A DNA stretch of 64,000 nt from Bispira polyomma (Eukaryota), in contig OZ287758.1 of assembly GCA_965649765.1 (NCBI GenBank), positions 18,104,001 through 18,168,000 on the forward strand, given 5' to 3'. The position numbers and the translations under genes were made by a program. Shown here in pieces: positions 868 to 59,800 of this stretch (positions are counted from its first letter, which is position 1; every line of letters starts with the position of its first letter). Under the pieces are notes generated by a model. It saw only the letters and a list, made by a program, of their open reading frames with translations. It did no database searches and was not told where the DNA came from.

Positions 868-3800
868 TGACTTTGATGATGATGATGACCAGAAGAAGGG
901 AGAGAGTACCGATTACTCCAGCAGATCCAGATCCAGGTCCAGCAGTCGTAGCAGCAACAGCAGTAGCAGCAGTTCAAGAAGTCACAGCCGTAGCAAGAGT
1001 TCTTACACATCTGGAGGCCGTTCTCGAAGCTCCAGTTCTTCATCACGCTCATCTTCAAGCTCAGACACAGAGAGGTCCAAGCAAAGTGAGTGGTGTACCT
1101 TTGTTGCTGTTATTGGGATGTTACTTTCAGCCTAATGTTTAGTCCAAGCAAAGTGAATGGTGTACCTTTATTGGTGGTATGGGTATGTTACTGTCAGAGT
1201 TAACGAGGTAGTATGTATCATTAGATAGTTTGTTTTTGAAACAAAGAGTTGTAATTACTAGTTACATTGTTTGACTTTGAATAAGAGGGTTCCAGGATCA
1301 ACCCTCGCTGCAGGTCTCGAGATTGTACGTTTGGTTCCTGGACTAGGTACTTCACTCTAACTTGTGCCTTTCTACCCAAGTGTATTGGGTCGCAGTGCCC
1401 TTGTGGTTAGAAGTGCCTGCCTGACAATTGCTCACCTCTCACCAATATGATGCCAAATCCCGTGTACAGTGCTTCAGCACAGTTTCTTCCACAATTGAAT
1501 CTGGCCATCGTGATATGACCTAAGCAGTTAAAAGCCATGCAAAACCCAACTAATTCAAATCCAACCAGGTGTATGAATGAGTACCTGGCTGCTAGTGGGT
1601 GTTAGTCTTTGCACTGTATGTGACAACATGGCTAGTATGCTCCCTTGGTTTGACAATAGGGTAGAACCCAGGCTGTGTAAATTGTGCTGTCAAATGAGAC
1701 CTCATTTAGGGTGATATCAGACTATAAACCCACATTTACATATGTGTTATTGTATTAAGTATTGTCATTATTTAAATTTATTTACAGATTTAGATTGGGA
1801 ACTTTTGTGAAGCTTGGAGATTAATGTGCCAAAATGCAGACAACATTTTCACACACTTTATAATTTATACTGGCTTTACAATTACAAAATAATCCATTTG
1901 AAACCAGAAAGTTAATAATACAACCTGTCTCCATTTTCTATTGATTATTGTCTGTGTGCTCTATTCAACCATTTAGTACTATTTGTGATTGTATCTAAAG
2001 GGCTTGACCACAGTTTGCTTGTAAATTAACTGCCGTGTTAGCTTGTGCATCAGTTACTTTTTCAATTCATATTTTAGGGTAAAATTCTTATCAAAGCCAA
2101 ATTTACTGACAAGTAGCAAAATCAATCCAAGACGTGGATAGTTTCTAGGGAAAGGAATGATGTTACAAATTAAAAAAATAAAATGTGAAGTGTTGTATGA
2201 TGTAGATAATAGATATTATGTTCTGTTCATCTTAGCACTGGTACTGGGAAACATTAGGGATGCACAAGATCAAGATAGTGTCTAAACGAGCCTAAGATAC
2301 TGGCAAAGTTTACAGTTCTAAAACCTGCAGGTGTGGCTTATTGAGTGGTGTAGTAAGTTTGTATTACTTTGCAAGCTTTGGGAAACCTTGATTAATGAGT
2401 TGTGTACAGATTGCTAGTCAGTTCTATTTGCGGTAGCCAGTTTTTAGTGATCTGTGAAGTTGTATGCTTTTTCTCCTTTCAGAAGACTAAGCCCTCCAAT
2501 CCCATATCCAAACCCAACCACTCCACCCATAAACACCAATTTTCTTACTAACAAAGGACACCTATTTACAAAGACAACAGCTTTTCATATTTCATACCGC
2601 TTATTCAAACACATAAAACTTTTATAAAGTTTGGCTGACTGTTTTTGAAAAATGTCATAAAACTGTATATATTTATGTTTATAAAAGGACAAATTTAACA
2701 AAATATTGTTGTAACTGTTTCATGTTAGTTGTAACTTCAAAAGGTATTGGTATTCGGCTTGGTATCAGTTGACAAACAGTGATTAAAGGTTGCTGTATCT
2801 TCTTAAGAATGATTGTGTCTTTGTAAATATTGGTCCAACGTTTTCATTAACCCTGATTTTGTTGTGTTATTAATGTTTATTCTGAATTTTAACCTTTGCC
2901 AGGCTATAGCCTGATAGGGAGTCGTTTGTTTATTCTTTACACTTACTCTTATAGTCGGTACATGTACAAGTTATCTTTATGATATGGTGAAATCATTGGT
3001 TAATTCAACCATGACTTTAAGAACAATTTTAAGACTTGTTATCTTGTTATTTTCATTTCTCAGAAAGTATAAGCTGTGCATTAATTTCGGTTTAGATCAG
3101 AAAATAACCATTAGCTAAACTAGCTATGTATATAAATTAGATTTAAAGCTGATTTCATGTTGATTTTTTACTTAGAGGTCATGACGTTAGACTGAAAATT
3201 TAGATCTAGACTAATTCTGAGTTTTGTGTCACCTGACTGAGTTCTAACCATGATGCAATACCCTTGATCTTAATTGACCTCTGGCTTTATTTAATCGTAT
3301 AAAGCACTGTATGATCCTTGACGTGAATGGCTAGTTTACTGAACAGGAAGCAGATGTAGTTCATAAACATGTTGCATTTGTTTATCGTATTCACGACTGC
3401 AAAAAGGTTTTCTTTATTAACACATTTTGCTTAAATAAAGTCATCTGACATAAGATATCTGGTGCCTGAAATCTTTATTTTAAAACCGAGCTTGTGTCAT
3501 CAGGACTTTTACACAGACATGTTTTTTCAGTTAGAATTGCAAATAGTAGCTGTACTTAATACCTTTTGGGGGATAGCTCAATGTAAGGTTTACTTTGTTG
3601 TTTGTATATCTTTCTGCTACATTTGTACTTTAAGTTGTATTCTATATATTCACCTCAGTGGAGGTAGTCTTTGTTTATCTTTACTGTTTTATCAGTGGAC
3701 CTCGTTATTGGTAAATGATATAGTTAGCGAGACTTGCCTCTATTTAATTAGTGTAGAGACTGAAAATTAATATGTCATGTTCAAGGTAAATGAAAAATAA

Positions 3801-6800
3801 TAACACATGAGGTGTTGTAGCCTTATGTCTCGTAGATTCGCGAGTTTTAACCATTTCTTTATGGGCTTATTTGACATTGAAAAAGATCATTCTTGACGAA
3901 AATTTGAGCTGTATTTTAATCTAGAGATGTTAAAATATGATTTTGTAATGTAAGAGATATAAAACACATTTGGTTATTGAAGAAAAACGACAAATATCGA
4001 ATTTACAAGACCCTTGAATCAACAATACCCAACTATATCTATAGGTTACTCAGTCCCATGTGAGAAAAAGTGGATAAAATCTAGTAAATAGGTTTTGACC
4101 TTCCTTTTGTAAGGCATGCAAGACTTTAAACAGGAAATGTGATGAATCAGATGCTTGAAGTTAAACAGAATTACAATATATGTGTACTGATAAAAGTAGT
4201 GATATTCAAAAATATGATTAAATGACAAGTGTTTAAGGATTTTGGGCAATTTATAAAGAATGTGTAACTTTAGACTTTGGCCACATACCAGTTTTCACTC
4301 TGGTTTTAGGTAACTCACACTGATACACAGATTGACAATACATGTTATTCTGTTTAGTGTTAACAAGACCAGCTTTCAGTTTATTGTCTTATTTTGTACT
4401 AAACCATGTTTTCTTTGTTAAACTATTGAAGGACTAACTTCTACTAAGTAACATTCTGAAAGTGACTGCTACCTAAATATTACTTAGGTTTTCAATGTCC
4501 TATTTATTCACAAAATTATGCGCTTTATTACATGTGTCTTTAAACTCAACAATTCCTTATTTCTTCATGAATAACTTCTGGTATAGTCGAGTCTTGGTAT
4601 TGTTATATAGTTTGGTGTTTCTGTATTAACATCAGTTTGTATTGCATGTTACATGTTTAGTATAACTGGTGATGTCATCTGTCTAGTGTAGACTGTAGAG
4701 TTAGTGAGATCTGATATGGGAGTGGTTGTGTTTTCCTACTTGCTGAATCAATTAACAGGGCCCATATTCACAAAGGGACTTAGCCAGGTCTTAGGCTTAA
4801 ATCTAGCACAAAAGTATACTAAGTTAAGCCTAAGACCTGGCTAAGTCTCTTCGAGAATACAGGCCCGGATGTTATTAACTCTTGATTCTGCAAGTTAACT
4901 AATCCCTGTAACAAACACCATCAGTTTGCACACACCAGGCTAACAAACATTATAATCTAAACATAGCACGGCTAGATAAGATAATCTGTAGCAATGCAGT
5001 TGGTGCAAAAGGGTCAAGCTCTTTAGACGCATCTCTGATTTAGTTCATGGACTTTAGGACAGTCCTCACTATGTCTTGAAAAGCTGTAACGTTTGTCAAG
5101 TAAGTCCAACCTTTGTGCATTTTGTAATTTTGTACATGTATTTTGTATTGTACATGTGTATAGCAGTATGTCGTATGTCAGTGCTGTGACTATGTTTTCT
5201 GCATTATACTACTAAATGGTTTCAAATGGATTCTTGGAACACAACTTGTATACATTGTGTACACCTCTAAACACTCAGGTTTCCTTGCAGTTTACTTGTT
5301 CTCAGTATGTATTTATATAGTCAGTCTATGGAAGTGCTGCAGTTGTCCAAATATCTGCTAATATAAAAGATGATTATTTGAAAGCTCTTGCTGTACAGTC
5401 AATACACTGAGACTGTTGTCCCCTCTCTGTGAAACCTAATCATCATATGTCTACATCTGGCATGCCTTACTTTCTGTATAAGCAGCATGTGCACTAGAGT
5501 AGTTTGATGGCTTTATCTCTACACCTGGGAGAAATGCTTTGAAAGATGGTGATGTTGTTTGTGTATTCTCTACACTCTTAACTACACCTACTGTGTATGT
5601 TGTAGACATGGTTTCTGTTAATACCTGTGTAGTTGACTGCACTTTTCCTGCCCCTGTTACTAGCTAAGTCCCCGTCCCCTGTCCAGACATTAGAGTCCAA
5701 GGAGAACCAGGTGACCTCTCCAACTGCCAGGTCTCCTGAACCCGTCATGCCTATTGGTCTCGGCAAACCAGCAGAAGTCAGGAATATGTCTTCTTCTGAC
5801 AGTGATGGTGACAGTAAGTACTTCCACTTGTAATACTCACCACTGGCTTATTATATAGCTAATAATGTTCTACACCTGTAGCCATATTCTACCAAGATCT
5901 CAACTCAGATCTGAGCTATTCATATCTCTGGCTAGAGTGAAGTAAAATCTGACTGCATATTTAAATTTAGTACTTAAAGCTTTTGTAATATGAATGGTTA
6001 CAAGTATAGCTGTATATGTTATTTCTGTCCTGTATCTTTACAGTAATAGTGATAATTAAGGTTAAAAGTTGTGAGCTGGGGTAATAGTCACAAAAGACCT
6101 AAGTCATGATTTTGTCTCAAGTCTCAGTCTTTTGTCTGAAGTCTTATAAAAAATTGTCTCAATTTAAGCTCTTATTCACATAATAATTCTTTGTGTCTTT
6201 ATGACTTGTCCATTAAACTCAGTTAACATGGCAACAGACAATCTTATTTCTGAATTGTATAAACGACAACGCAATTTGGTCACACTTTTTGCATATAAGT
6301 ATCATTTACTTTTGGAGGTGTTGTTGGTATTTGCCTACAGTTATTCTCTATAATTTTGTTAAAATAGCTGATTAGTAGCCTATTGTATGATGTTCTGTTT
6401 TAGTGCCTGTCCCAAGACATGAGAGGTCCATGTCATACCACAGCTCAGATGATGACATGTATGCAACACCAGATGAGAATGAGTCACCAAGACAACAGAA
6501 AGAGTCACCAAGACAGGATACAGGGTCACCCAAACAAAAGGCAGAGTCACCCAGACAGAATACAGGGTCACCAAGACAGAAAGAAGAGTCATTAAAACAG
6601 AAGCAAGAGTCACCAAGACAGAAGGGAGAGTCACCCAGACAGAAGGAAGAATCACCCAGACAAAAGACAGAGTCACCAAGACAACAGAAAGAGTCACCCA
6701 GACAGGATACTGAGAAGCCAGTTGTGTTGAGTAAGTGGTGCTTCAGTTCACTCAGTTAAACGCATCTTTAGAGTCTACATGCACTTTGTTTGACCCACAA

Positions 6801-26560: not shown

Positions 26561-29500
26561 CCCTTATACCGTCTACATACATTTATGTATGTGCTGATGA
26601 CTTGTCTGTTTCTCTTGCAAGGCTTTCATTGAGTGGCATCCTGTGAAAAGATCAGCTGTGGGATGTCATGTCATTTTGATGACGGTTCAGCATAATAGCC
26701 AGATGACATTATCTTCTTGGCCTATTGACATACATATATGGTATAGTCATATCGGTATAGAACGCGGCACTACTTGTTTTCCAGTTAGGTAGTTGACTGT
26801 TTTGTCAGACTTACATGCTTCTCCTGAAGTGTCAAGAGTAAGTCTAATGCCTTATCCTCAACAATTAATGCTTTAAAACTCCTTAATTCCTTAGGTGGGG
26901 CTCTGTTTTACACAAATAACCCTCCTCCTTCAAGGTTGGATTCAAGCATTAGTAAGGATAAGGTAAAGTATTTATCGCAAAAAAATGTAAAAATTTTATT
27001 GTAATTTATCTTTTTGGAAGATAAATACTTACCTTATCCTCACTAAACTGGATCCCGTCCCAGCCAGCTCCACTTTTATTTGTGGAAACGTCTCCCAAAT
27101 TAATTGTGAAGGCACTTCCCGCGCATGCGCAGTGAGGTTGGCGAGAATAATTTAAGTCAAATCACAAGAATAGTCTTAGAAAAAAAGACTGATGTGTTTT
27201 TTATTGTCGAATATTTAGGTGCACTAAATTAAAAGCATTAGTGAGGATAAGGTAAGTATTTATCTTCCAAAAAGATAAATTACAATAAAATTTTTACAAT
27301 TTATTTTTTTATTTCGTTTGTAAAATAAAATTTAACCTTTAACCTCCCAATTACCACATATTTTGTTATGCCCATTTTTTGTGGAGCCAATCAGATTCGT
27401 AGGTTTCAAAAGGCATTTATACATGTGACAAAGACTAGGGTTGGGGATGTATATACAGTAGAATCTGTGTAAGTCGAATGTGCAATATCCACCATAATTA
27501 CTTCGAATTATGGTAAATTCTGTCAGACCAAAAAACTCTTAACACTTGCAGTAAGTATGGGCGATAATAACGTATGTCTAGTATGACGACATATAGGCAC
27601 TCGTAAAATTAACTATTTTAAAGTACAAACATCTTTCTTAGTTTTAAGGAATCTACTAAGTACATTCCAATTTCAATTTATACAACCAAATTGCACTTAG
27701 TGTACATAAAAATAGTTATAGCTCGAAGGCGGTAATTTATGCAAATAAGATGAAAGGCGGCCCGTGTCATATAAAATAGGATTAATTCAAAGTGATTTTT
27801 GGGTAAGTTTATGTATATTTTGATGAATGTTATGGATCAGACATCTAAATAACCTTAATTGGAAATAAATATATCTCCACTAAATGCTCTTTTTAACAAT
27901 AGCCGTATACAAATATGTGGCTCATGAGGACATACAAAATAACAATAGTGGACGGCGACCAGTTAACGCCCACCCAAACACACAAAAACGGAAATTAAAA
28001 ATATTTCCCAGTCACAGACCACCCGTGTATTTTCGGACAAGCAACATGGGCACCTCGAATCCGTTTTGCAATCGTGTCTCACGGATCTGCCCCACCTAGA
28101 AACAAGTATTTTACCAAATAACCTGTAATATCGCTCATAAAGGTACGAAATAACAGTACCAATTGACGCCCACCCTCATTCAAACGACAAAAAAAATATT
28201 TGTGGATTAAATGATAATCCTAATTTCACTTCAATTACCAATTTTATGCTCTATTATCACTGAAACATCTGTGGTTTGAATCTTTTAATGCATCATGGAA
28301 ATTTGTTTATTTTTTCTTTACGGTAGGCATGAGAGTAATCATTATTTGGTCCATATTTCTATTGAAACAACAACTTCTACTGCAAACCCATCAAGTGTTA
28401 AAATGGATCTGTGAAGCGTAAATTTTGACACCTTTGATTATTGTGAGGGACATACAAAGGTCAAAACTTATTTTTATATACAAGCAATGAAATTATTACT
28501 TCAATACTTAAAGTCTTAATTAGATGTATGATTATAAATAATAATAATGATATTTCCATTGTGTTTACTATATATTATATATTTATGCAACAACTTTTTG
28601 AGTTTTAAAGCCTATTAAACTCAATGTCAAGAAATGTATCACAAATCCAATAGGTCATTTAAGTTCAGCTCAATCATTTCTGTAAAAAACAAAATACCCA
28701 GTGAAACCAAGAATATGTGATTTGGTGATTCACTTCCTACGTACAGGGATCTGTGTAGTAGTCTTAATACAGGCTTATATTTTGCACATTTTTAATTCTT
28801 CAATATTTATGTTTTATTAAACGTTTACTCTCTTATTATAAAGCTATTATATATATTCTGCAGTGACAATGTATCTATTACTGACCAAACATTGTTCATT
28901 CATGTTTCAGTATTTTATAATGTTTTTCAACTGATTATACATTGTTTTAACACTTCCAGCATGTGTATTTATAATTTTTGCTCATATTAAGTATTTATTG
29001 GAAAGGTTATTCACTGCCCAATTAAATTTTGTGATTATAAAAAGAGTATTTTTAATGATAATTCAATTCAGGTGTAATGTTTAAAGGAAATTTGTTTGGA
29101 CTTATAAAAAGGAGCTAGTTTGTTTCCTCTCAAAGGATATAGCTAACTACAGGACATGCTATCGGCTGTGTGTGACCAGCATTAAACCATAGAGTGGGAA
29201 TGTAATTGTTTAAACGAAGTAATATGCACTTGACACCTATTTTTACCTAACTTTGATAAATGTAAAAAATAATCAAAAACATGCATGCAACATGTTGAAT
29301 GTTGTGAAGTATTTGTTAAAGTCCGGATATCATCAAAACAGATACACTGGAGTTTGCATTGCAATAACAACAAGTAGGTACAGGTGTGTAAACTGCAGAA
29401 AGGGCAATACCGATTAATAACTGCAGATTCATCATAATTTCTGTGGTGCTTTCTACCAGGTTGTACCTATGGTTGAAAATTTAAACAGTGAGTAAATGAT

Positions 29501-32691: not shown

Positions 32692-33032
32692 CCACATTTC
32701 CCGTTTTACGCATTCGTTTTTCTTCTGCTATTTTCGCATTTCCTTTTCTTCTATGTGACTTAGTTCACATATTTTTTATACTACAAGTGTTTTTACATAG
32801 AATAGACTACATCTTTTATTTTGATTCTGTCTAGCTGTGATTTATATTTGGTTCTTTTTCTTGCCACATTCCCCGTTTTACGCATTCGTTTTTTTCTGCT
32901 ATTTTCGCATTTCCTTTTCTTTTATGTGACTTTGTTCACATATTTTTATACTACAAGTGTTTTTACATAGAATAGACTACATCTTTTATCTTATTCTGTC
33001 TAGCTGTAATTTATATTTGGTTCTTTTTCTTG
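32692..33032 (+). repeat. Two tandem ~172-bp units in the LINE 5' region
   Basis: ccacatt-cccgttttacgcattcg... starts at 32692 and again at 32864. Confidence 0.85.
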
Positions 33033-33054
33033 CTACTGCTCCTTCACCTCTGAG

Positions 33055-36000
33055 ATGTGGAAGTTCTGTTTAACACTTCTCCCGTGTATGATTCTGGCCA
33101 GTGTCAGATTACATAAATGGAGCGCCTGCTCTCCATCCAATACACCTTTTTTCGACCAATTTGCACTTGGTCCATCTCTACTAGCCTCCCTGGATAAGGT
33201 GAACACTTCTTTTTTAGCCTTTCAAATTCACATTACCCGCCGTCCAAACCCCAGGGTTAACAGTATTTGGATCCCTCTGTTGACTGCGCTCTGCGGGGAT
33301 GTCAGCATTAATCTGGGCCCCCCAGCATCCTTGCTTAAGATCGGTGCATTTAATGCCTGTTCCTTGCGGGATAAGGCACCTGGGGCTATCGACTTAGTCA
33401 TAGCCCAGGACCTGGATGTTGCTGCCCTCTCCGAGACGTGGCTCAGCAGTAGGGATACAACATCCTTTTTATCGGATATTACTCCTCCGGGCTACAAATT
33501 TCATCAGTTCCCCAGGTTGCACAAACGCGGGGGAGGAGTTGGCATTTTTGTGAAAAATACCCTTTCCTGTGAAATTCTAAAAAACCAGTCCTACTCGTCT
33601 TTCGAACACATTTCATGCAAAATTTCAAACGGTTATCATTCATTCCTAGTTTCCTCCTTTTACAGACCACCCATCCCTTCTTTAACTAGTTTTACTCAAG
33701 AGTTTTCCGAATTCCTTGAGACCCTTAACCTTCTCCCATTTGAAGCTATCAACATCAAGCTCGACATAGAAAATACTACGACAAAAGATTTCAACACCCT
33801 CCTTAAGACTTTTGGGTTCTCACAGTTTATCTCTACTTCAACCCACATCCACAATCACATACTCGATCTGGTAATCGCAAGACCAAATTCAAATCTCATC
33901 AGAGAATCATGGGTAACTGATGGGATTTCAGATCACCTAGCAACCTTCGCCTATTTAAATTTACCAATACCTGCCTCACATAAACCTCGTGTCATAAAAT
34001 ATAGAAACATCAGAAAAATTAATATAAACAAATTCAGAGACGATATCCTGGAAACTAATCTCATCAAACATCCATGCAAAAATGCTGAAAGCCTTAGCTT
34101 ACAATACAATCACTGCCTTTCTACTGTCCTTGATAAACATGCGCCATGGGTATCAAAAACCCTTCCCCCAACTAACAACCATGAATGGACCAATGCCGCC
34201 ATTACAGAAGCCAAAAGACGCAAACGCCAACTTGAGCGTCAATGGCGACACACAAAATCCTCCTTAGACAGAAGCCGTTACCGTATCGCCACAAATAATT
34301 ACAACAGGCTAATAACTGATGCCAAAAAGCAACACTACGACTCCATCATCACCGAAAATCAGGATAATCCCAAAAGGTTATGGGCCTCCATAAACAAAAT
34401 TCTACATCGAACATCAGAGAAAGTTCTCCCCATAAACCACTGTCTTACTTTTTTAGCAGAAAAATTTGGAAAATTTTTTATAGAAAAAATCAGCAACATT
34501 CGTGACGCCTTCCCAACGATACATCACTTCAATCCTCCAGCCCCAGGATATAAGGTTTGTAACCTGTTTCATTTTAGTACACTGTCAGAGCTTGAAGTTC
34601 TGAAACTCATCAAATCCTCTACTATTAAATCTTGTGACTTAGATCCCATCCCAGCAGTTATTCTGAGTCAATGTCTTTCCCACCTGTTTCAAGACGGCAA
34701 ATGTAACTCCCTTGATTAAAAAACAAGGGCTTGATAAAAACCATCTCAAAAACTACAGACCGGTGTCAAATCTTAGCTTCGTCTCAAAAGTCATCGAGAA
34801 AGCTGTGGCTAAACAAATTTCTGACCACCTTAATAGACAAAACATTGAAAATCGCCACCAGTCTGCTTATAGAAAATTTCACTCTACAGAAAGTGCCCTT
34901 TTTTCCATCAGCAATGATGTCAATCTTGCACAGGACCACAACGACACAGTGGCCCTCACCCTTCTGGATCTCTCAGCTGCATTCGACACTATTGATCATG
35001 TCCTGCTCTGTGACACTCTCAAGCAGTGGTTCGGTATAAATGGCAGTGTCCTTAAATGGATCAGATCCTACCTTACTCTTAGGGCACAAAGAATTAAACT
35101 AGATGATCACCTATCATCTTCCATAAAACTTCCATATGGAGTACCCCAGGGATCCGTCCTTGGTCCTCTACTTTTCACCCTTTATACACATCCTCTCAGC
35201 ACTGTCATCAATAAACACAATATAAAACGCCACATGTATGCAGACGACACTCAAGTCTATTTCTCCCTCAATCCACAAAACGCAGATACTAACATAGACC
35301 TACTTGCAGACTGTCTGTCTGATGTCCAGGCATGGATGAACTACTCCAAACTAAAGCTTAACCCTGACAAAACAGAATTCATCCTCATAGGAAACAAGAA
35401 AAACAGTGAACTCCTAAAATCTTTGTTTCCCATCTCCCTGCTGGGAAAAGACATACTACCTTCCAAAAATGCTAAAAACCTGGGTGTCACTTTTGATTCA
35501 GCTTTTTCGTTCGATACTCATGTTGCCAACATCTGTCGCTCCTGCTATTACCACATACGCGACATCAAAAGAATCAGAAACCACTTGTCCATGGACACAG
35601 CGATAATTGTGTTAAATGCCCTTGTAAGTAGCCGCCTCGACTACTGCAATTCTCTCTTGTACGAAGCAAATAAGTCAAACATTAAAAAGCTCCAGTCCAT
35701 CCAAAACTACCTATGTAGGGTCATTTTTCGCCTGGGTTGTCGCACAGACGTTACTCCTTACCTCAAAAAATTACACTGGTTGCCCATTAAATCTCGAATT
35801 TTGTTTAAAATTCACGTTACCACTTTTAAGGCTGTAATCACTCAACAGCCACCCTACCTTGCCTCCCTTCTTTCCTTTAGTAACCGCAAGACAGGCAACA
35901 GACTCTCTGTCACTTCGGTCAGACCAATCAGAAAGGCGGGTTTCAGAGCGTTCTCCACCGCAGCTCCACGGTTATGAAACAGTCTCCCAGTTGACCTCAG

Positions 36001-36073: not shown

Positions 36074-37207
36074 CTTTCCTCGTGCACGCTCCCACTTCCT
36101 TCCTTACGACTCTGCAATTTCCATGGACTTAATGATTGGACTAATGATTCTGCTGTTGCGCTTTAGAAGATGCCTAGCATCAACAAAGCGCGTTAAAAAT
36201 CTATAATAATAATAATAATGCTGTTTCTCCAAGTAATAGGGAACAATGACCTTGACATTTTAGTGCACGTGGCTGCACGACCTGCAGTGATGCACAAGCT
36301 ACGGTATTTTTGGTTCAGAGGACCAAAAACACCAACATCTAACGGCTGTAATATATGTGTGGTGTGAGGAGGCAATCCTAGGAACTCCACCTGAAATATC
36401 CGGTTGCATATGCAGTGAAAAAGTAACACAATTGTCATCAAGAGGGACTGCCACAAACTGGATCAACATTTGCCCATTCAATACCAGGTAATTGTTATCA
36501 ACTACAACATCTGTACTGCAGTGCTATGTGGGAAGAAGCAAGGTATATATTGGAATAAGCAAGCACAGGTGTCAAAGGCATGCAATTCTTGTTAGAAGGC
36601 TGGGGTACATGTTACAAAACAATTTATATGTGCAGCAGTTATGACTAAGGTACATGAAGTTGCTGCTTGTTGCAAATTGAAGTGTGTTTGTCCAATGGGT
36701 CCATTTTGAACATTATAGTAGAAGGCGTCTTTATAAACTAGATAGAAACAAACCTGGTTTTCTTTTGCAAGTTTAATAACTTCTGCTGAAATGTGGCTGA
36801 CATGGTTGTCCATGATCAACAATACCGGCTTGTCTGGCCCACAGTGCTTCATAAAAATTTCCTTAAACCACTGACAAAACAGCTCTTTATCCATGTAACC
36901 TGTGGCAAAAATGATGATATTGACAGTGACAAAGATCAAACAATAAACAATGCTGCAATTGAGGGACAACATGTAACAGGTTTGTAGTTGTATTCCTCCT
37001 TCTACAATGATATACATACCATTGGGACTGTAACCGTAAAGCCATGACTTTGGCAGATCATCCCTCAAACAAACATTCGGCAGGCCCTTCTCAAAAATAA
37101 GGAATGAAGGGAGCACTCGTCCATCGGCGCAAATGCAGGTCATACCTGTGATGTGGTCTATATTGGAAACCTATTCAGTAAGCAGAGCGTATGAATCATA
37201 CATAGGT

Positions 37208-45722: not shown

Positions 45723-45972
45723 TTTTTTTTTTTTTTGAATTGGGATATTTAACGTCCACTCTAGTACCTGTTTAGGTTGGGACGGGTGGTTAGAAACGCT
45801 GCAGGAAACATTGCATACAGTTGATGAAGGTTCTGCACTGAAACCAGCGGCCCACAGTAAGGAACTACCACCTTTCCTACATAGGCTTGGACAGGATTTG
45901 AACTCACGCCGCCCAGAGGTGAGACACCAGTGATTGTGAAGCGCAATGCTTGCTAACCACTATGCCACCGCC
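45723..45972 (-). mobile_element. Same SINE family in transposase intron 3
   Basis: High similarity to the 8973 and 55653 copies; poly-T on the + strand. Confidence 0.9.
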
Positions 45973-46647: not shown

Positions 46648-47026
46648 CTGGAGATACAAAGACTGAGAAACATGTTGAAGTTTGTTTACTTATTATACAA
46701 AATGGAAAATATCATTACCACTATAACCCCGCGAAGCTCAGTTCGGGTAAGGGGGAAGTTCTGGTTGGACATGTACAAAATGTAGTCGACAAAGGCCGCC
46801 TCCTCATCAGGCGACAACATACAGTCCGGACCACACTTGGCCGTTGCTTGGATGCCTTTCGCCACATGGTCTCTTAATGTGCGTCTGGATATGCCATATT
46901 CTTTTGCCGCTCCTCTTACACTCCCCCCACCAGATCGTACTAGCTCTACAGCTTTGTCCATGCTTTCACAGTCGTAGGTCTCTGTTGGTGTAATAAGTTT
47001 GTATACATGCAAACATTAGGTTTGTA

Positions 47027-47520
47027 CTATACCTCGAACAATTGCGCCCTGCAGGCAGTTGGAGCAGGGCGGTAGGGCGGTAATTTGATATCTGTTCAAT
47101 ACACAGTTTACTAGGCCAATTGATTAAAAAGATGTAGCTTTATAAATACTTCACATGAAATATTCGTTTTGGTATCAAAATAAAGCTCTAATTATGTAGC
47201 TTGTTAATTTAATTTTCAAATAAAAGGTTATATGTTTTTGTGTTTCTTCAGAAAAAAAAAAATATTATGAAACAGATGAGAAAGTTTAAATTGACAGGAG
47301 TTAATTATTAACTAGAATTACTCAAAATCATTTCTTTGTATTCAATTGTACATAATAAAAACTTTCAGACCATACCAAAACGAATATTTTAGGTGAAATA
47401 TTCACAGATATATCCATTTAAGCAGTTGACATTTTTGAGAAAATCACCAATAGAAGTCCAGGACGGTTTTCAGGGCGGTATCCGAATCCACTTCACTTTA
47501 AGCAATTGTCCGAGGTATAG
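47027..47520. mobile_element. TA-flanked MITE (494 bp)
   Basis: TA|CTATACCTCGAACAATTGC ... GCAATTGTCCGAGGTATAG|TA, plus an internal inverted repeat (~47150/~47370). Confidence 0.8.
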
Positions 47521-48180
47521 TACTAACCCAAAGATTATGGTGGTAAAACTTTTGTACTACAGAAATTGTGAGTATATTTTGGTCATAGCAGCTAAACATA
47601 TTTCGGGCCTGTTATGTGTCTTCATAAATGTGTGGCAATATCAATTTTCATTACTATTTGCAAAATTCAAACTTGCTTGGGCATATCTACATGTAACCAT
47701 GTTTTTGATGTCCAGTCTACGGAAGGGGCTGCAACTTAGGAGGGAGACAATGTGTAGATGAAGACAATGATGGACCAGATTTACAGTTTTTCGCACATTT
47801 GGGCATTTATTCTTAAATATATATTAATTATTACATTAGTAATGTTAAAACCTAAAACTACACTATATTATACACAATTTTAAGTTTACTTTAAGGTCAC
47901 CTCAACCTTAGCTTGAGGTGAGCATAAAATTTCTGAGTTAAGGTCACCTCAACCCTGTCTTGAGGTGAGCATAAAATTTTGAAGTAGGGTGGCCTTAATT
48001 TTACTTTAAGGAGACCCTTTAGAAAGTGAATTTAATTTAATATAAGGTTAACTTAAGGGTAACTTATTTTAAGGTAAACTTGAGGTTTTATATTTATACA
48101 AAGTTTAATAATACTGTTAAAGTATGTGTAAAACTACATACAAGGTATATATATAAAATGCCCAAACGCCATACTGGTAG

Positions 48181-49302
48181 TTAGGTAGTTATAATGCGTT
48201 GTAGGGAACGAGCCACTGTAGCCGAAGCATTAGGAGTGGACTGGAGATACGCCCATACAGCTGAAGATCTCCAGCCACCATGAGCCATTATTGACTGGAG
48301 CTGAACATTGTTATCAAAGGCCAACGTGGCCCCAGACCTACGGAATGCATGGAATGTAAATGAAGCAGGATTCAAAGAAAGTTTTACAATAATTTCTCTC
48401 AATGTACCCCTTACTTTGTAAGCAGTGAGGGGTAATAAGTGGTTCCCCACTTTACACACAAATACCTGAGAATTGATACAATTTTTATTAATCCGAAACA
48501 TGTATTTAAGGGCTGCTACAGGGCAGAGCTGTGAATCCCCCAAAGAGGGAATCTGGACCACATGGTACTGGTTATATTTCTGCAAATTTTTTGCCCAATG
48601 CAGTATCACATGGACACCAGGTGAACCCCATACAAAGTCCTCATTTGTGAGATGTCGCTCTGGATCAAAATGGGATACCCTGGAAGGGACCAAATTTGAC
48701 AATCTAAAAAACCCAAAGAAGGCTGTTAAAAACAGAGCCTTATACACATAACAATGAGAAACATATTTACATTGATGGACAATAGCCCTAAGTATGGGCA
48801 CAGTAATTATACCTTTGAGCTGGGGGGTATAAGGAGTGGATAAGGTGAGTGATTTTAGAAACAATCGAATCTGTGGATGAGCAAAAACATCAGAGGGACA
48901 GTCCCACAAGTGGAATTGGTGCTTGATAGCAGAAATATAATTCTGAATGGAAGGGGGCTTCAGCCCCTGTTGGGCTAAGTATTCCATGAACTGAAGCACG
49001 AATTGCAATGATATAATACTGGTATTCCCCATAAATATGGAGAAGGCAAAGAAAAGCCTGACGCAATTGCTATATACTTGATTTGTTTTTGGTCTCAATG
49101 CAATATGTAATCTCGCCTGGGCGGCATTGGTAAGGTAAGTCTGCAAAGGAGTACCTGAAAAATTAAAGTATTTACAAATCAGCATGGAGGTGGTAGTGTT
49201 TCTTTGTGACAACGCACCAGGTTTTTTCCCTAAGTTGGTCTCGAATATTTTCATTAGTGAAGCAAGGGATAAACATACGTGATAAATAATCAGCATATAC
49301 AT
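48181..49302 (-). CDS. Tyrosine recombinase (YR)
   Basis: FFGFFRLSNL, K, CPV, FHAFRRSGAT, HGGWRSSAVWAY: the R-K-H-x-x-R-W-Y catalytic set is intact. Confidence 0.92.
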   Translation of the reverse strand: MYMLIIYHVCLSLASLMKIFETNLGKKPGALSQRNTTTSMLICKYFNFSGTPLQTYLTNAAQARLHIALRPKTNQVYSNCVRLFFAFSIFMGNTSIISLQFVLQFMEYLAQQGLKPPSIQNYISAIKHQFHLWDCPSDVFAHPQIRLFLKSLTLSTPYTPQLKGIITVPILRAIVHQCKYVSHCYVYKALFLTAFFGFFRLSNLVPSRVSHFDPERHLTNEDFVWGSPGVHVILHWAKNLQKYNQYHVVQIPSLGDSQLCPVAALKYMFRINKNCINSQVFVCKVGNHLLPLTAYKVRGTLREIIVKLSLNPASFTFHAFRRSGATLAFDNNVQLQSIMAHGGWRSSAVWAYLQSTPNASATVARSLQRIITT

Positions 49303-51412
49303 TTTTTACTCCCGCAATGTGGACCAGTTCCAATTTTATATTGAAACGGGCTGTCTCCAGCCACACACATCGGGCCATGGTAGCCAGGGCTTGGTCCCTG
49401 AAACGACTTGAATTGAGTGAGGCCACCACTGCTGCATTGTCACACCACACTCAGACTTTGGTATTCCTGAAATATTGTCCCCACATGCGCAGAGCCACTA
49501 ACACATTCCACATTTCAAAGTGAACAATACCATAAGTGGAGGGAGTGTCAGCGGGGAGAGAGGCAGCATATACACAATCACTCCACATAGCCCCTATACC
49601 CTGCAAGGAGGCGTCAACATACAGTTCATGAGTGTCACCACCCTTCAAGTGCATTTCCACTACACCATTGAAATCCTGCAAGAAAGCATTAAACCAATTA
49701 AGGTTGAGTCGAAAGTCATTTGTTAAAGCTATTGTCTTGTGAGGATAAGTGTCCCTCAGTAACTTGAGCATTCGATTTAAGAAAAGCCTGGCAGGGTGGA
49801 CACACCTATGGACATACAATAACTTTCCCAATAAGGATTGCAGCTGTCTTCGGGTACACTGAGTTTTTTCCCCCCATTGTTTACATTCACTCTGTATGGA
49901 GGCCAATTTACCAGCGGGTATTGTTAACGTGCCAGCACGAGCATTGACCATTATACCCATGCAAACAACAGCCTCAGTGGGCTCACACACCTTATTGGGG
50001 TTAATTGGGAGACCAAGAAATTCAATCAATTTGTACAAGTGTTCAAAGGAGGACCTAGCCTTTCCACAAGGCTCTACGGAGACTAGGTCGTCGATATAAT
50101 TCCACACTTTAAAGGATTTTTGTTTCATAAGGCGACGTATACTGTCTGTTACACGCTCACAGATGGCCGTGCCATGCTTATACCCCATCATGACGGCAAG
50201 GTCCACATAAGTTTTTTCCCTCCAACTTAAACCCGCATACTGGTAGCAATAGGGATCTATCCTCATATTCCTAAACGCGCGGGACAAATCGATCTTGTAC
50301 AACTTAGCGGAGGGGCCAATCTCATTAATACCATCCACCAGCATGTCTATGGTAGGGAGAGTAAGGCTGAATTCGAGACCATCATACATTCCGTTACTCA
50401 CATTACTGTTGACAGAGGGGGCATCATGGGGCCATGAAAGGTCAACAATAATACGTCTACTCTGGTCGTCCTTTGGACGTGTCATAACAGGGGAACAATG
50501 TATTTGTTTAAAGGGTTTATCCTGAAAAGGGCCAGCAATAGCCTTATGCAGGCGCTCAGTGACAAAATAATTGTCCACGTCCATGGGATACTGCAATGCA
50601 CTGTCATGGTTTTTAACCTTTTCATTGAACACAAATCCCTCAGTATTAATGTCAAGGGGGAAACCAAATTCCAAGTACTCAGGCAATAACACATCCCTAT
50701 CCCCCTTCAATACAGTTCGCCAATTATCTATGTTTAGCTCAGAGGGGACGGGGACCCTCGCCCCTAGGTAATTATGGCAATCAAATGAGTGAACCTTTCC
50801 ATGAGACTTAATCGCCCAGTCCTCTAATGAATCATATTCAATAGGATTTCTCTCCCCCCTGACATGTAACACTTGGTTATACAAACACATAAAGCCAAAG
50901 TTTTCACTCGACTTTCTGGCAACGGTGAAAACGTCACAATCACCTTTAATAGGTGAGTCTACAGTTTTGTCAACACAGGCCTTGGCCTCTAGAAGGGGTT
51001 TGCCCTGATTTGAATTTTCCAGTGAACTGGAACGAGTGGTGTTAACACCAGAATTTGAAATCACCTCAAGGGTGGAAATTAGGGGTTCGCCCTCAGAACA
51101 ATACACATCAGAAATGGGGGGACATGCAATTTCCCCCCCCCCCCGACATACAGACTGCACATTGCCACCTTTATTCACAACAACGTCACTTGACGCCTTG
51201 TGACACACTATATTTACACTGGTTTCAATGTTATTTACACGAGGTGCAGATCTTTCACTATCAGAGTCTTTAGATACAATTTTTACAGCTTTTACATTTT
51301 CAGATACTCTAGCACAAGTTTTATTTTGACATGCCTGATCACACTTCTGTAAACTACGTTTTTTAAAATCACAATAAGCCTTATTCCAAAAATCCCGCGT
51401 ACCTACTTGGAG
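49172..51412 (-). pseudogene. RT/RNase H ORF2 with one internal TGA (49451-49453)
   Basis: RRIIVDLSWP, KIDLSRAFR, NYIDD, YVDAS, VWCDNAAVV, HIAGVKNVYADYLSR. The frame is open right up to the gag stop. Confidence 0.88.
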
Positions 51413-52639
51413 TCAATTTTGGTTACCCTTGTTTGAGTCTTTATGGTAACCCTTGGTTTTATCACAATTGATTTCTTTGTGAAACTGATTTCGCTTCCCC
51501 ATATTGTAACATTTAGAACAAGCGTGTTTGAGAATAAGGTTGCCAAAAATGTGATCATCTGTTTGACTGCACGTGCCCTTGTTAAATGCACTGCACATTA
51601 CAGTGGTACTTTTTCCCTTGGTTTTTTCACTGCCCCCAGCCCCTTTAGTTTCATGAGAGGAGTTATCTTTGAGAGTACGTTGCGTTAACCGTGCTCGGAG
51701 ATCATGAACATCCCTTATTTCATCCCAATTTACTTTACCCTTCTCCATTTCAAGTAGGAGTTGGCAATGGGCCGTTTTAACAGTGTACCAAGAAGTCTCA
51801 AGGGCATCACGCATCAACTGCATGCCATATTTAAGCATATTGTCACGAATGCGACTACTTTTCTCTTCATATATACAAGCCAAATATCCCTGAAACCACA
51901 TGATGGGGGTTAGCTCATCATATGAGGGCTGTTTTTTAGTTGAAGTGATATAACATAACTCATGTGGCCAGTTTACAATATGTTTTACACAGTTCTCAGC
52001 AGTTCTATGCAACCCTGACTTTATCTTTGGCTTACCCTGTTCTGGGGACTGGAGGTACTGACATCGGTGCCTTTGCAAACGTCTGTCGACCTGAGCTTGA
52101 ATGTCCTCGTTGGTTCTAAGGTATCTCTGGCTGGGCAGGATGCCGTCATCTAGCTGCTGGACGTCGTCTCGATGGAAGTCGTGATCATAGTGAGAACCCC
52201 CTAGGCGCCGACGAACGGGGTTTAAATCATACTGTTCCTCAATGTCTAAGTCAGTATCCTGGGCATAACCCCGACGTACAGGCGAACTATGAGATGGAAA
52301 AGCAACTTTAGCATTTGAGTCCGACTTTCTTTGTTGCAGTTCCTGCCTGACTTCGATCATGTCGTCCTCAAACTTCTGTAGTTTATTGAGGATTATATCC
52401 AGTTTATTAGTTGCTGATGTATCACTGTCTTCTTCCTGCGTCGTCTGCTTCTTCTTGGTCTTACCAGAGGCCTCGGCCGTTCCCACAGGTGCGGTTCCGC
52501 TGCCCTTCTCTGACTGATTACGCTTCCTGCCCCTGGTAACCGGAACACTCAGCACAGTCAAGTCCAGAACACAGTCCCTTCCCACAGGGCGATGGTGCAC
52601 GATACTGCATCTCTTGCAGTAAGCCGTCTTAGTGGCCAT
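51413..52639 (-). CDS. Gag-like ORF1 (N-terminal CxxC-HH-C and C-terminal CCHC-type zinc motifs)
   Basis: aaaATGG start; YCKRCSIVHHRPVGRDC; WPHE; CSAFNKGTC...HACSKC...H...C. Confidence 0.8.
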   Translation of the reverse strand: MATKTAYCKRCSIVHHRPVGRDCVLDLTVLSVPVTRGRKRNQSEKGSGTAPVGTAEASGKTKKKQTTQEEDSDTSATNKLDIILNKLQKFEDDMIEVRQELQQRKSDSNAKVAFPSHSSPVRRGYAQDTDLDIEEQYDLNPVRRRLGGSHYDHDFHRDDVQQLDDGILPSQRYLRTNEDIQAQVDRRLQRHRCQYLQSPEQGKPKIKSGLHRTAENCVKHIVNWPHELCYITSTKKQPSYDELTPIMWFQGYLACIYEEKSSRIRDNMLKYGMQLMRDALETSWYTVKTAHCQLLLEMEKGKVNWDEIRDVHDLRARLTQRTLKDNSSHETKGAGGSEKTKGKSTTVMCSAFNKGTCSQTDDHIFGNLILKHACSKCYNMGKRNQFHKEINCDKTKGYHKDSNKGNQN

Positions 52640-52964
52640 TTTCGATGTGATATCCAATAGTGATCTACAATAGTCCACTTTTATAACAGTTCAACTTTCT
52701 GAAAACACAAAGTGAGATGCTTGCAGTTCACACTTGTTTGTTTGGTTCCAGTGTGAAAGAATAAATTAACAATGGAAAATTTATATCATATATCTATGAA
52801 TTTTCAAAATGGAGGGAGGCCACGCCAGAAGCGCGGGAAATAAAGTAGTCACGTCCCCAAACAAGTAGGCAGAAAAGCCAAAACAAGCATGAAATGCAAA
52901 TCCCAATTGCAACAGCACTTCTCCCAGCAGATGAATTTTGTGCTGAAAACCCTAACAACATGCT

Positions 52965-52972
52965 CTTTTATA
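52965..52972 (-). promoter_or_regulatory. Candidate TATA box for the YR retroelement
   Basis: TATAAAAG on the minus strand ~330 bp upstream of the gag ATG. Confidence 0.35.
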
Positions 52973-55184
52973 GGCAGAAAGGTGACACCTGAGAACCTTC
53001 TGACATAGTAAACTAATTAACCAGGGGGTAGGAAGGGGGACTGTTTAGGACAGGATGTTGACTTAAGAGGCCCCCCTTCTCAGACTGACACCAAGTGCTA
53101 AAGCCCCTTGTACACAATTATAGTTACACCCGTTGACATTAAATGGAATGGATATTAATTGGAACGATTAAACAGTAAATTGCAAGGTTATAGCTTCAAT
53201 AAAACAAATTTAAGATAAAATTCCACTGCCATATATTTTATTACAAGCCGTTATAATTATGTCCAATAAATGTCCCTGTCAAACAATAACCCATATTTTA
53301 AAGCAATTTCATTCATTTTTATCCTGAAATATGACAAAATGAATGCCCATTTGTTATTCTGGTGATTTCTTAAGATTTACTGTTACAATTTTTACCAAAT
53401 TAAGCTACATAGCCAATTAGGTAGTTGACTGTGCCACAGAAATAAAATATCCATGTTACAGTTTTATCAGTTGCACAATGGGATAACTAGCTTGAAAATG
53501 TCATTACTTTCTCAAAACACTCATTTACTATCACTTTCCACAAGAACATAACCAGTGACTTTGTGTTTGAATTAGGAGTTGACCTACAAAAGTATATGGT
53601 CAAATACTTCATGCCCCCAATTTGTTTACACAGGAAGTGGCTGAGGAGACATGAGCAGCTCAGTTTCATCAAAGAAGTAAACAACTTCTGGAAATCATAT
53701 AAACAACCGGAATTAACAAATACAGAGTTAGTTTTTATGTTGCTTAACTAATTATAGATACAAGTGTATGTTTACTTACTCTTACGTTTTCTAATTGAGG
53801 AGTTATTGGACATTTTACTTTTACTTTAAAGGCAACACCACTAATCTAAAGTGCTTTACTGGTCAACGAGTGCCCTGAACGGCCTTGGCAGGGACAGCTG
53901 ACCAGTAACTGACCAATACGGGTGATATTTACGGCTGCTGGGTGGGCGTTAACTGGTACACGGGCGTTAACTGGTCGCCGCCCACTAGATGTAATCTCGT
54001 GTCAAACAACACAATCTTTCCATCCCTCTGATTCGAGTAATCCTTTTTTTTCCCATGCTAAACCTAAGCTTAAAGTCAGAAATTTGCTTCGAATAATGGC
54101 TTTAAGGGTACCTCGAATGTTCGAGGATTTCCTAAAGATTAAACTAAAAATTGTTGGGGATCTGAAATTCATTCGAATTTCGGCTACTTTTGAGTATTGT
54201 CTATTCGAGTTTGACCAAATCCACTGTACAATGTATACTGACAGGATATATCTATTTCTTCTAAATTGCGAGAACGCACGCCTTCTAACTTTGGTTTGGA
54301 CCGCTAGACGGCGCCACACTACAGTCCTTTATTTGTGTACAAGGGAGACCTTAATCGGAAGATGAATTCTATTTTTTAAAATAATGTACGAAATATGACC
54401 AAAGAAGAAGAAATTGCCTTTATTCAATAAAAACATTATTATATGAAAGTTTGACAAAATATCATCTATATGCTCATATAGTGGCTTCAATCCATTAAAT
54501 TTCTTTAGTTTGCAAGACTTTGATAGCTTTCGAAACCGCCATTATTTGTAGTACTAAATATACTGTAGCAAGTATCCAATATGGCCACCGACCTAATTAA
54601 ATCACACGAGACGGTGATTGGCTGAAAATCTGAGCCGTTTCCAATGCGCATGCCCAGTAACTGAAGCATATCGCGTCAAAGGTAAGACCTCTTAGACGGG
54701 TTAATTGAAACGGCAACAATGAGGAGATTAAAGTACCAACTTCAATATAAGGAAAGTAAACCGTCGATATACACTAGCAGTATATACTCACATATTCGAA
54801 CTATATATATGTATATATATATATATTTTATGAATATATCCAAGGAAGAAAAATGGAAAATTACGTTGTGTATATACCAAAATATAACGGATATTAATGG
54901 CGAAATGCTAGAATATAGATACATACATCTATACAAGGAAGAAACATAGTGAATAAAAATAATTTAAAATCAAGCATTTTTCTGGACATTTCGGAACACA
55001 AGAAAGTAAGATAAACTCTTTATTTTGTCGTAAAATAACATTTCTAAGAATTACTTCACAGTATGCAAAGTATATTTTGAAATATAGAAAGCATTATAGT
55101 TTCTTCTAAAAACAGAAAATACTAGACACGGTACCTTTAATTGGTAGCCAGACGTTTCAATTTTTACAAGTAGATCCATTATGG

Positions 55185-55652: not shown

Positions 55653-55873
55653 GGGGCCGTGGCGGCCTAGTGGTTAGCAAGCATTGCGCTTCACAATCAC
55701 TGGTCTCTCACCTCTGGGCGGCGTGAGTTCGAATCCCGTTGATGCCTATGTGGGAAAGGTGGTAGTTCCTTACTGTGGGCCGCAGCGTTTCCAACTACCC
55801 GTCCCAATATAACCTAAACAGGTACTAGAGTGGACGTTAAATATCCAAATTAAAATTAAATTAAAAAATTAAA
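55653..55873 (+). mobile_element. tRNA-derived SINE with 16-bp TSD
   Basis: A box tggcggcctagtgg, B box gttcgaatccc, A-rich tail; TSD accatgtcttgtagta at 55637-55652 and 55874-55889. Confidence 0.92.
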
Positions 55874-56847: not shown

Positions 56848-59800
56848 TCACATGAACATGTCGTCTTCAAACCCGGGAGGTCTCATGTGGTCAGGGTCTG
56901 GTCTGAGGTACACAACAAAGACTAAACTTGCACCTTGCATCATATTACAAACACAACTACATTAAGTAAATATTTTAACATAAGAACTCCATATTTACTG
57001 AACTACTTGTACAAAATCAAATGTGGTTAAAAAACCACTTCTGAAGTCAGCTATAAAATGACAGTTACTGTTATTACGAAAAAGACAGATGGTCTAAAAA
57101 TGTGTCCTTTGACAGTCCAGATGTCACCCTTTAAAACTGTTAACAGATTAAACTTTAACAGTGTAAAAGTAACAGATGGAATATTCACTGCAATACTTCA
57201 CTTAAGATCCACTGATACAGTAAAACCTTTATTATCCGACTATTTGATTTTACACTCAATTTTATTCTCCAAAACTTATTTTTTCCTATTGTTTTATACT
57301 AAATTGTCCCTTCAATTTTACAGACCTTCTATTATCCAAACAAATTATCACTCTCCCAATATGGTCAGATAATAGAAGTTCTACTGTATAATCAAACATA
57401 ATACACATACAGTTTAAGATTTTTATGGTCCAGGACATAACTAAAACAGTAAAGTCAAATTTAGGTCTGTCAAATACAAAATATGAACTCCCTGCTGTGC
57501 AATTTTTTTTAAAAAAAAGTCCTTAGTCGAACTGTGGTTAAACCATGACATGACACTGGCTGAGCTTGTGTCCCACACGTTTTTGTCCTTTTCAATATTT
57601 AAACTTAATAAGGTACTTTGTCTTTGATATAACAATTGGATCAACTTATAGTACTAACCAGTGTCTTATTTGGTAATGATTTTCCTTACTGATACAGCAT
57701 CAGCCGATACCTCATTAGCCATGATAACTAAAAACCTACATTTGTTTACAGTTAATTCTTACCCAGCTCTGTGTCCTCCTCTCTCCAGGTCTGGTGGACC
57801 TAAAGGGTCAAACCTGGCACCAGGGGGCACTGACCCTCTACAAACACAGTAAACACTGGACCTAAGGGTCAAACCTGGCACCAGGGGGCACTGACCCTCT
57901 ACAAACACACAGTAAACACTGGACCTAAGGGTCAAACCTGGCACCAGGGGGAACTGACCCTCTACAAACACACAGTAAACACTGGACCTAAAGGGTCAAA
58001 CCTGGCACCAGGGGGCACTGACCCTCTACAAACACACAGTAAACATTGGACCTAAAGGGTCAAACCTCTACTAACACACAGTAAACACTGGACCTAAGGG
58101 TCAAACTGGCACCAGGGGGCACTGACCCTCTACAAACACTAGACCTAAAGGGTCAAACCTGGCACCAGGGGGCACTGACCATCTACAAACACACAGTAAA
58201 CATTGGACCTAAGGGTCAAACCTGGCACCAGGGGGCACTGACCCTCTACAAGCACACAGTAAACATTGGACCTAAGGGTCAAACTTCTACAAACACACAG
58301 TAAACACTGGACCTAAGGGTCAAACCTGGCATCAGGGGGCACTGATCCTCTACAAACACTGGACCTAAAGGGTCAAACCTTGTCTACAAACACACAGTAC
58401 TGAAAATACTGGCAACAGGCTTACTTTGAATATATATGTTACAGCGAATATGGGTAATCAGGGGATACTTGTAAATTTTAGTGAATACACCTTTTGAAAT
58501 TTCCAGGGACAAATCAGCTACTGGGGTTGGACAACTTCAAATAAATATGTCTAAAGCATTATCACCACAGTGAATATCTACTAATTAAGGACTCATAAAA
58601 TAGTTTGGTGGTGATAAGTCATGCTATATGCTATGGTGACTAAACAACAATTTCTTTAACTTTGGTCCATAATTTTTGGACTCAATACTCTACATTGGTA
58701 TAATAAAACACCATATTGGTGATATAAGAGGATGAAAGTTAAAACTTAACCTTCTACTAATTAATGCCATTATACATTTGTTAACTATTTCCTGCCAGTC
58801 TATGTACAGGTTTGATCTATCAGACCAATAAAATTGTAACGAAAGTTAGTGTTACACTTTTGTCAGCGAACTAGGTTCAGTATGTGGTATAGTTAACGTA
58901 CCAAAGTCTGGTCCATCCCAATTTCTGGTCTAACATTTTTAACATCACATATAAGATATTTTCCAAATGAAAATACTTCCACCAGCTTAATATTCTTAAA
59001 GTAAAAATGTTACTTAAATAATATTTTTAATTATTTATTTTTTGGCAACAGATAAGTGCTCTCAAATGATTTTAACATCAGCATTATACATCAGTACATA
59101 GTACCTTGGTATTCTGCCAGGCATGCCTAGTCCTCCCCTGTCTGGACCTACACCACCCTGGAATCTTCCTGCCCTCAGTGGATCCATCAACATCCCACCA
59201 GCAGAGGGACCAGCCAGCGGGTCAAGGTCACCACGGCCAATAGAGAAGGGATCATCTGGGTCAGCCCTAAGTACAGATATAACAAGGTCACCACAATCAA
59301 AAGAGAAGGGGTCATCTGGGTCAGCCCTAAGTACAGATATAACAAGGTCACCACAATCAAAAGAGAAGGGGTCATCTGGGCCAGTCCTTAGTACAGATAT
59401 AACAAGGTCACCAAAACCAATAGAGAAGGGGTCATCTGGGTCAGTCCTTAGTACAGATATAACAAGGTCACCACAATCAAAAGAGAAGGGGTCATTTGGG
59501 TCAGTCCTTAGTACAGATATAACAAGGTCACCACAACCAATAGAAAAGGGGTCATCATCTGGGTCAGCACGTAGTACAGATATAACAAGGTCTATTAGAA
59601 AAGGGATAATTTGAGTCGGAACTTAGTAATGTAAAGATATAACATTAGGCTTCAAAATATGGCTTCAAAATATGCACTGGTTTCTGAGAAATCATGGTAG
59701 AAGCCTTCAACTGGCCAATGTTAGGACAGTCCGCCTCTACTTCCAAATCCATGATATCACGTTACATGAGACCATAAAATGACTAGTGGTTGACTTTTTA

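Follow-up and report, generated by a model that had tools for sequence, protein, structure and literature searches.

The tyrosine recombinase (YR) of a Ngaro-like retrotransposon in Bispira polyomma is probably produced from a spliced subgenomic mRNA, in which the first 201 gag codons would be joined to the whole YR while the Gag core and pol are skipped. The candidate splice sites recur in related elements at the same place and in the same phase. Here ‘window’ refers to the whole stretch of DNA analyzed, 64,000 nt long, and all features described below lie on its minus strand.

Layout and class of the element

The minus strand from about 53114 to 47712 is a retrotransposon with three frames, namely a gag-like ORF, pol, and YR. 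Its probable limits (47712..53114, 5403 bp) come from a contig junction, as 47711 is joined to 53115 with one shared letter in one contig per run, in three DNA runs of one study. With the letters in between not given, the joint is a putative empty site. The element itself is covered by contigs from three DNA runs of one study.

The gag-like ORF1 (51413..52639) extends from ATG 52639 to TGA 51413 and encodes 408 aa with Cys/His motifs. It has 3615 relatives at E ≤ 0.001 and matches no Pfam family. Pol (49172..51412) contains reverse transcriptase (RT) as well as RNase H, with an RVT_1 match at E 9.6e-7, the YIDD motif at 50098, and the stop at 49172; in the window copy, a premature TGA at 49451-49453 falls in RNase H. 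Upstream of gag, a TATA-like box, TATAAAA (52966..52972), is a putative internal promoter. The 3′ region (47798..48166) is a self-inverted repeat, though an imperfect one. It includes AATAAA at 47811 and a 42-nt hairpin in two copies at 47891-47979; a similar inverted repeat surrounds a poly(A) signal in the related locus L003.

RT/RNase H and YR together, with no integrase or protease family match in the family search and with a gag-like ORF1 upstream (in the same place in the related loci L001 and L003), place the element in the order DIRS. The methyltransferase domain is absent after RNase H, as in Ngaro, since pol ends ~35 aa past the last RNase H motif; DIRS1-like elements would have this domain. 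No terminal repeats were found in the 47712..53114 copy. When the Ngaro split pattern A1-ORFs-B1-A2-B2 was sought in this one copy, no direct repeat between the 5′ and 3′ parts was found, and one account is that A2-B2 may be absent from it. Comparison of the 5′ part with the 3′ part gave no significant inverted match, only the self-inverted 3′ region. The element is called Ngaro-like and not a proven Ngaro. No relatives were found in viral contigs, where two pattern hits were unrelated, or in prokaryote genomes.

Candidate splice sites and the predicted fusion in the window

A sequence-only reading of this DNA had claimed a consensus donor in mid-gag, an acceptor just after the pol stop, and an open frame across the joined exons, and the minus strand reads exactly so. 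The donor (CAGG/GTAAGC, 52030..52038) has 52036 as the last exon base, in phase 1 within codon 202. The acceptor (TACTTTAATTTTTCAG/GT, 49154..49171) lies 17 nt past the pol stop and has 49154 as the first exon base, also in phase 1. Removal of the predicted 2881-nt intron (49155..52035), which contains the Gag core and pol, would join exon 1, the 604 nt from the gag ATG, to exon 2 (48181..49154), giving an open frame of 525 aa to the YR stop.

Splice sites were scored with position-weight matrices of approximate frequencies. Over 7.5 kb, the donor ranks first among 482 GT sites, and the acceptor seventh among 407 AG sites. A branch-point-like motif, YTRAY (49177..49183), is located 25 nt before the exon in a 45-nt AG-free zone upstream of the acceptor. 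One listed variant, a common one at 49178, falls in this motif and preserves YTRAY. In the DNA contigs of the three runs, the 52036-49154 joint was not seen among the 15 joints listed (146 more exist), and the 40 variant rows listed (698 more exist) include none that changes the GT or AG.

Exon 2 encodes a complete recombinase of 323 aa, with the Phage_int_SAM and Phage_integrase families and the catalytic set R, K, H-x-x-R, W, and Y at residues 150, 188, 268, 271, 294, and 302. In a weak profile match (E 8e-4) to Cre, the nearest solved structure, exon residue 16 aligns with Cre residue 34. In a structure model of Gag, the donor is placed in a linker of lower confidence, with helix 178-195 on one side and the conserved Gag core on the other. 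By this profile match and this model, both splice cuts fall at predicted domain boundaries.

Conservation of the acceptor and donor in related loci

A metagenome scan yielded six related loci, L001-L006, from 114 candidate stretches. Their YR identity is 27-45%, and three of them share one metagenome. Conservation of the two sites at the DNA level had been proposed as one check on the fusion, and it was borne out, with an in-phase acceptor in all six loci and a donor in both of the loci that contain gag DNA, L001 and L003.

In each of the six loci, a phase-1 acceptor occurs where YR homology begins. The acceptor is YAG/G or YAG/A in the window and the six loci, 19-27 codons before a conserved RP anchor (19-21 codons in five loci and 27 in L006). 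Among all AGs of the respective locus, it ranks 3/262, 2/47, 62/305, 1/192, 17/118, and 2/120 for L001-L006. The chance of an equally good in-phase acceptor in a 9-codon window is 0.004, 0.010, 0.112, <0.001, 0.069, and 0.005, respectively, and the product of the six is ~4e-13, for sites picked by eye after alignment. Acceptors are weak in L003 (3.0) and L005 (4.4). The acceptor phase is fixed in 7/7 elements, and an upstream coding exon should therefore be in phase 1.

On the donor side, a phase-1 G/GTAA site is present 4 to 14 codons before a KSG motif of Gag in the window (p 0.003), L001 (p 0.009), and L003 (p 0.013). It is not the top gag donor in the relatives, being third in L001 and second in L003. 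The predicted introns there are 3441 and 2597 nt long, and the joined frames are open for 458 aa in L001 and, up to a later break in YR, for 439 aa in L003.

The acceptor could be real and paired with another upstream donor, either 52464 or that of a short leader exon, in which case the N-terminal addition to YR would be a short peptide or the Gag zinc motif, without the coiled coil. This reading stays live because a second phase-1 donor-like site in the window (52459..52467, first intron base 52464) is in phase and as strong as the main donor (9.2 vs 9.3), and would yield an open 382-aa frame. L003 also carries a phase-1 donor at 343 (6.0). However, no donor at the place equivalent to 52464 appears in the top-scoring donor lists of L001 and L003, and only the site before KSG recurs in the window, L001, and L003, and as a G-K/N pair in the Gag homologs described below. 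We regard another donor as unlikely.

Start codons and the frame of YR relative to pol

The sequence-only reading had also suspected that the N-terminus of the YR ORF, which overlaps RNase H, is non-homologous. Indeed, the 50 ORF codons before the acceptor are not conserved, and homology in the relatives begins at the acceptor. The family has neither a conserved start codon nor a conserved frame relation between pol and YR, which bears on two other routes to YR.

First, YR could be translated from its own AUG, either by reinitiation once pol has terminated or on RNA from an internal promoter, and the resemblance to splice signals would be incidental. The window copy has four in-frame ATGs upstream of the acceptor, at 10, 33, 47, and 49 codons, and L006 has one at 19 codons. 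Nevertheless, the other five of the six relatives, L001-L005, have no in-frame ATG before the acceptor, and their first Met is up to 100 aa inside YR. In the 120 listed homologs, called starts are spread between 79 aa ahead of the anchor and positions within the domain, and the conserved acceptor would be left unexplained. Translation from an own AUG, conceivable in the window copy and L006 but not in L001-L005, is very unlikely.

Second, a programmed frameshift near the pol end could generate an RT-RH-YR polyprotein. As quoted in PMC13003380, Poulter and Butler 2015 consider Ngaro YR the probable product of such a frameshift, placed where the two frames briefly overlap in -1. Five elements include a pol end. 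Of these, the window has YR overlapping pol by 134 nt, with A-rich runs at 49230-49221, and L003 has it overlapping by 7 nt in the -1 frame. On the other hand, YR in the window is in the +1 frame, not -1, and the overlap peptide is the nonconserved part mentioned above. L001, L004, and L005 have no overlap, with in-frame stops before YR and gaps of 334, 60, and 16 nt, and a frameshift leaves the acceptors and donors unexplained. Because the relation is +1, -1, in frame, or up to 334 nt apart, no single frameshift serves all elements, whereas splicing is indifferent to this relation. Frameshifting is excluded as the family-wide route, and we give it hardly any weight as the source of YR here.

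Signatures in protein homologs

The acceptor can be followed in protein sequences because in-frame reading of a polypyrimidine tract and NYA-G/NN gives a hydrophobic run and then [SAVTLPI]-[GDE]. Of the 249 YR homologs found, 120 were listed. The count was made on the 48 that reach at least 22 aa before the anchor, leaving out 24 that start after the anchor and 48 that start closer than 22 aa. The signature occurs in 38 of these 48 ORFs (controls 7.0 and 7.9, maximum 16). With the sequences grouped at 60% identity, 22 of 26 groups keep it.

For the donor, G-K/N was counted in the 18 aa before KSG in 84 of 154 Gag homologs, that is, those with the KSG-WP motif and 25 aa before it, a set that includes profile-building sequences. 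It was found in 60 of the 84, while shuffles gave 24.1 and at most 40. This is compatible with a donor and is not proof of one.

The motifs might instead arise from protein constraint on a Gly-Lys/Asn linker and from spacer DNA rich in T. As a pair, G-K/N is common in linkers, two of the acceptors are weak as noted above, and the rules for both signatures were set after the data had been viewed. Against this, the Gly codon at the donor is GGT in 3/3 elements, though GGT makes up only 19 of 61 Gly codons, and the distance to KSG varies while the phase stays fixed in all seven elements. Such an origin is highly improbable, and splicing remains the preferred explanation.

No natural Gag-YR protein was found among the 120 listed YR matches (of 249), the longest of which has 378 aa, or among the 154 Gag homologs. 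Nine longer YR proteins also contained none within the length band of 644-2000 aa, a band above the 450-530 aa of a predicted fusion, and the named gene models in this band are RT-YR or Gag-RT-YR merges. A cluster look-up returned neither names nor any long member. The absence weighs little, because most such proteins look like calls on unspliced DNA.

The Gag half retained in the predicted fusion

The Gag model, built with 85 rows, has a mean pLDDT of 76 and a pTM of 0.47. It begins with a small zinc module, followed in order by the long helix 75-108, helix 171-195, the donor linker, a helical core 225-327, and Cys/His knuckles. No fold match was found in the PDB or viral libraries (best Z 5.0). 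In an atlas comparison, the N half reached only 0.76, and the C half 0.96 to unnamed fungal clusters.

Exon 1 would retain the N-terminal CxxC-H-C zinc-type motif (52571..52618, residues 8-23), which is confident in the model and is found in 64 of the 154 Gag homologs, many of them with an incomplete N-terminus. It would also retain a predicted coiled coil (52319..52402) in helix 75-108, with the best heptad at 80-107. Heptads are present in the N half of 26 out of 45 full-length Gags, but in the C half of only 1 and in none of the shuffled sequences. The larger Cys/His knuckle region lies in the Gag half outside the fusion, which itself has the zinc motif, the predicted coiled coil, and a helix. 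Because the knuckle region is left out, a tether by way of the coiled coil would be more probable than one in which knuckles bind nucleic acid.

Expression of pol

In 3/3 elements (window, L001, and L003), gag and pol share a frame that is interrupted by one UGA (51413..51415 in the window), a candidate readthrough codon. No strong phase-1 acceptor was found in the 5′ part of pol in these three elements, where the best are weak (2.6, 4.6, and 3.6), and splicing of pol from the same donor is not favored. L001 has a strong phase-0 splice pair at 579 and 1272. A readthrough hairpin also lacks support, with z of 0.67, -0.56, and -1.32 in the three elements. With strong phase-1 acceptors absent there and no hairpin supported, occasional UGA readthrough is our best guess for Gag-Pol, and we lean slightly toward it. 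The motif of -1 slippery sites can be read as K-N. This pair occurs in the last 6 aa of 38 out of 115 Gag ends, and would fit such a site in other subgroups.

Discussion

We propose the following course. Unspliced RNA starting from the TATA-like box at 52972 would serve as the genome and the Gag mRNA, and probably also as the source of Gag-Pol when ribosomes now and then read through the UGA. Spliced RNA would give Gag residues 1-201 joined to the whole YR. With its retained Gag half, that is, the zinc motif, coiled coil, and helix, the fusion could co-assemble with full-length Gag, and the recombinase would thereby enter the particle where cDNA is made. Co-assembly is a tentative part of this course, with a chance somewhat short of even.

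The sequence-only reading had pictured an env-like subgenomic Gag-YR mRNA whose product would tether the recombinase to particles or nucleic acid. Splicing has strong backing in the way the sites, their position, and their phase are kept among relatives, and in the failure of frameshifting as an alternative; that the spliceosome uses the donor and acceptor is what we infer from them. More tentatively still, Ngaro-type elements in general may get around their lack of a protease with three products. These would be Gag, translated from the genomic RNA; Gag-Pol, for which the end of gag is recoded (in this subgroup through the UGA); and the fusion Gag(N)-YR from spliced RNA, loaded into the particle via its coiled coil.

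The claim that a spliced Gag-YR mRNA had not been described agrees with the literature searched, in which no report was found, although a mention is possible in Goodwin and Poulter 2004, Poulter and Butler 2015, Repbase, or supplements. The available portions of PMC7192593, PMC4495291, 10.1101/2021.08.05.455354, PMC8547959, PMC2632668, PMC3266345, PMC9341512, PMC3537659, PMC6681497, and PMC9940879 contain no mention of it that we found.

For the YR ORF of YR retrotransposons, which often lacks a start codon, the standing proposal is a frameshift, put forward only as probable. A phase-1 splice that is conserved predicts one exact junction per family, which can be checked in any RNA-seq set. If true, splicing would account for the freedom of the YR frame relative to pol. 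It would lead to corrected protein models for a widespread class, and those who build retrotransposition assays would face a native enzyme that is a Gag fusion. Were the scheme general among Ngaro-type elements, the frameshift model would be overturned, and the annotated YR ORFs of these elements would all miss the real N-terminus. Splicing would also add a host control point over integration.

Comparison with known systems

Spliced subgenomic mRNAs serve retroviral and gypsy env and foamy-virus pol. The element studied here would resemble these in having, beside one genomic RNA, a spliced one through which a gene is reached or its dose is set, and would differ in that the gene reached is the integration enzyme, fused to half of Gag. 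A spliced gag RNA (shGAG) is described for Ty1/Copia in the accessible part of PMC5580714.

In Ty3/Ty1 and retroviruses, by contrast, a protease releases integrase from Gag-Pol. YR elements have no protease (PMC3783388), and a Gag-derived oligomerization tag would thus be an economical way to load the recombinase. As for Cre, exon 2 starts at about the start of its folded part, but Cre has no Gag-like N-terminal partner.

DIRS1-like and PAT elements share the same three ORFs and integration by YR. They differ in their methyltransferase domain (PMC4157794, in the part seen), which the window element lacks, and no 5′/3′ inverted terminal repeats like theirs were found in the window copy.

Ngaro, of the order DIRS, is closest, with gag, RT/RNase H, and YR in the same order and on the same strand and with no methyltransferase, as the portions seen of PMC3783388 and PMC4157794 describe. 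In the former, YR can be in frame or shifted relative to pol across all Ngaro groups. The window element differs from Ngaro in that split direct repeats are not seen in this copy and that only a UGA separates its in-frame gag and pol. For YR, an overlap and a frameshift have been proposed in the Ngaro literature, whereas the window element carries candidate splice signals.

Candidate readthrough and splicing at the gag-pol junction

In the Ngaro-like element, gag and pol lie in the same frame and are separated by a lone UGA (51413-51415). The same arrangement is found in two related metagenome loci, L001 (1122-1124) and L003 (1317-1319; positions in each locus's own numbering), and in all three a Gln is located two codons ahead of the gag stop. 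Judged from sequence, the UGA is a candidate readthrough codon in the window element, L001 and L003.

L001 additionally contains a donor/acceptor pair at 579 and 1272, scored with approximate position-weight matrices. The donor is a strong phase-0 site in gag (score 8.9), and the acceptor, within the 5′ part of pol, is the best of the whole locus (11.4). This pair could be a gag-pol splice in L001's family. Further downstream, the 334-nt pol-YR spacer of L001 (3618-3951) holds another strong acceptor, of phase 1, at 3778, which leads into a short frame ending in a stop.

Leader and 3′ region

The 5′ leader of the window element contains an acceptor-like site and two upstream ATGs (52698, 52890 and 52789, respectively). 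No clear donor was seen; a leader intron is possible by sequence.

An imperfect inverted repeat flanked by TGGGCAT and ATGCCCA occupies the 3′ region of both the window element (47798-48166) and L003 (4350-4430), and the poly(A) signal sits in its right arm in both. In L004, another related locus, a second gag-like ORF (2994-3806) lies 3′ of YR, perhaps belonging to a tandem or neighbouring element.

Other mobile elements and repeats

Two tandem arrays occur in the window, with periods of ~63 nt (57801-58382) and ~60 nt (59163-59616), the latter open on both strands. A SINE-like repeat of very high copy number is present twice, in opposite orientations, at 45723-45969 and 55661-55866. A short, near-identical inverted match between 53939-53987 and 27946-27976 perhaps marks the ends of another mobile element. 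A plus-strand LINE-like element (33010-35977), broken into two parts, contains an RT frame and another that is endonuclease-like. Transposase pieces are also present, HTH_psq at 46686-47015 and DDE, of IS630/pogo-like type, at 36592-37170, and the inverted repeats at 47011-47536 resemble a MITE.
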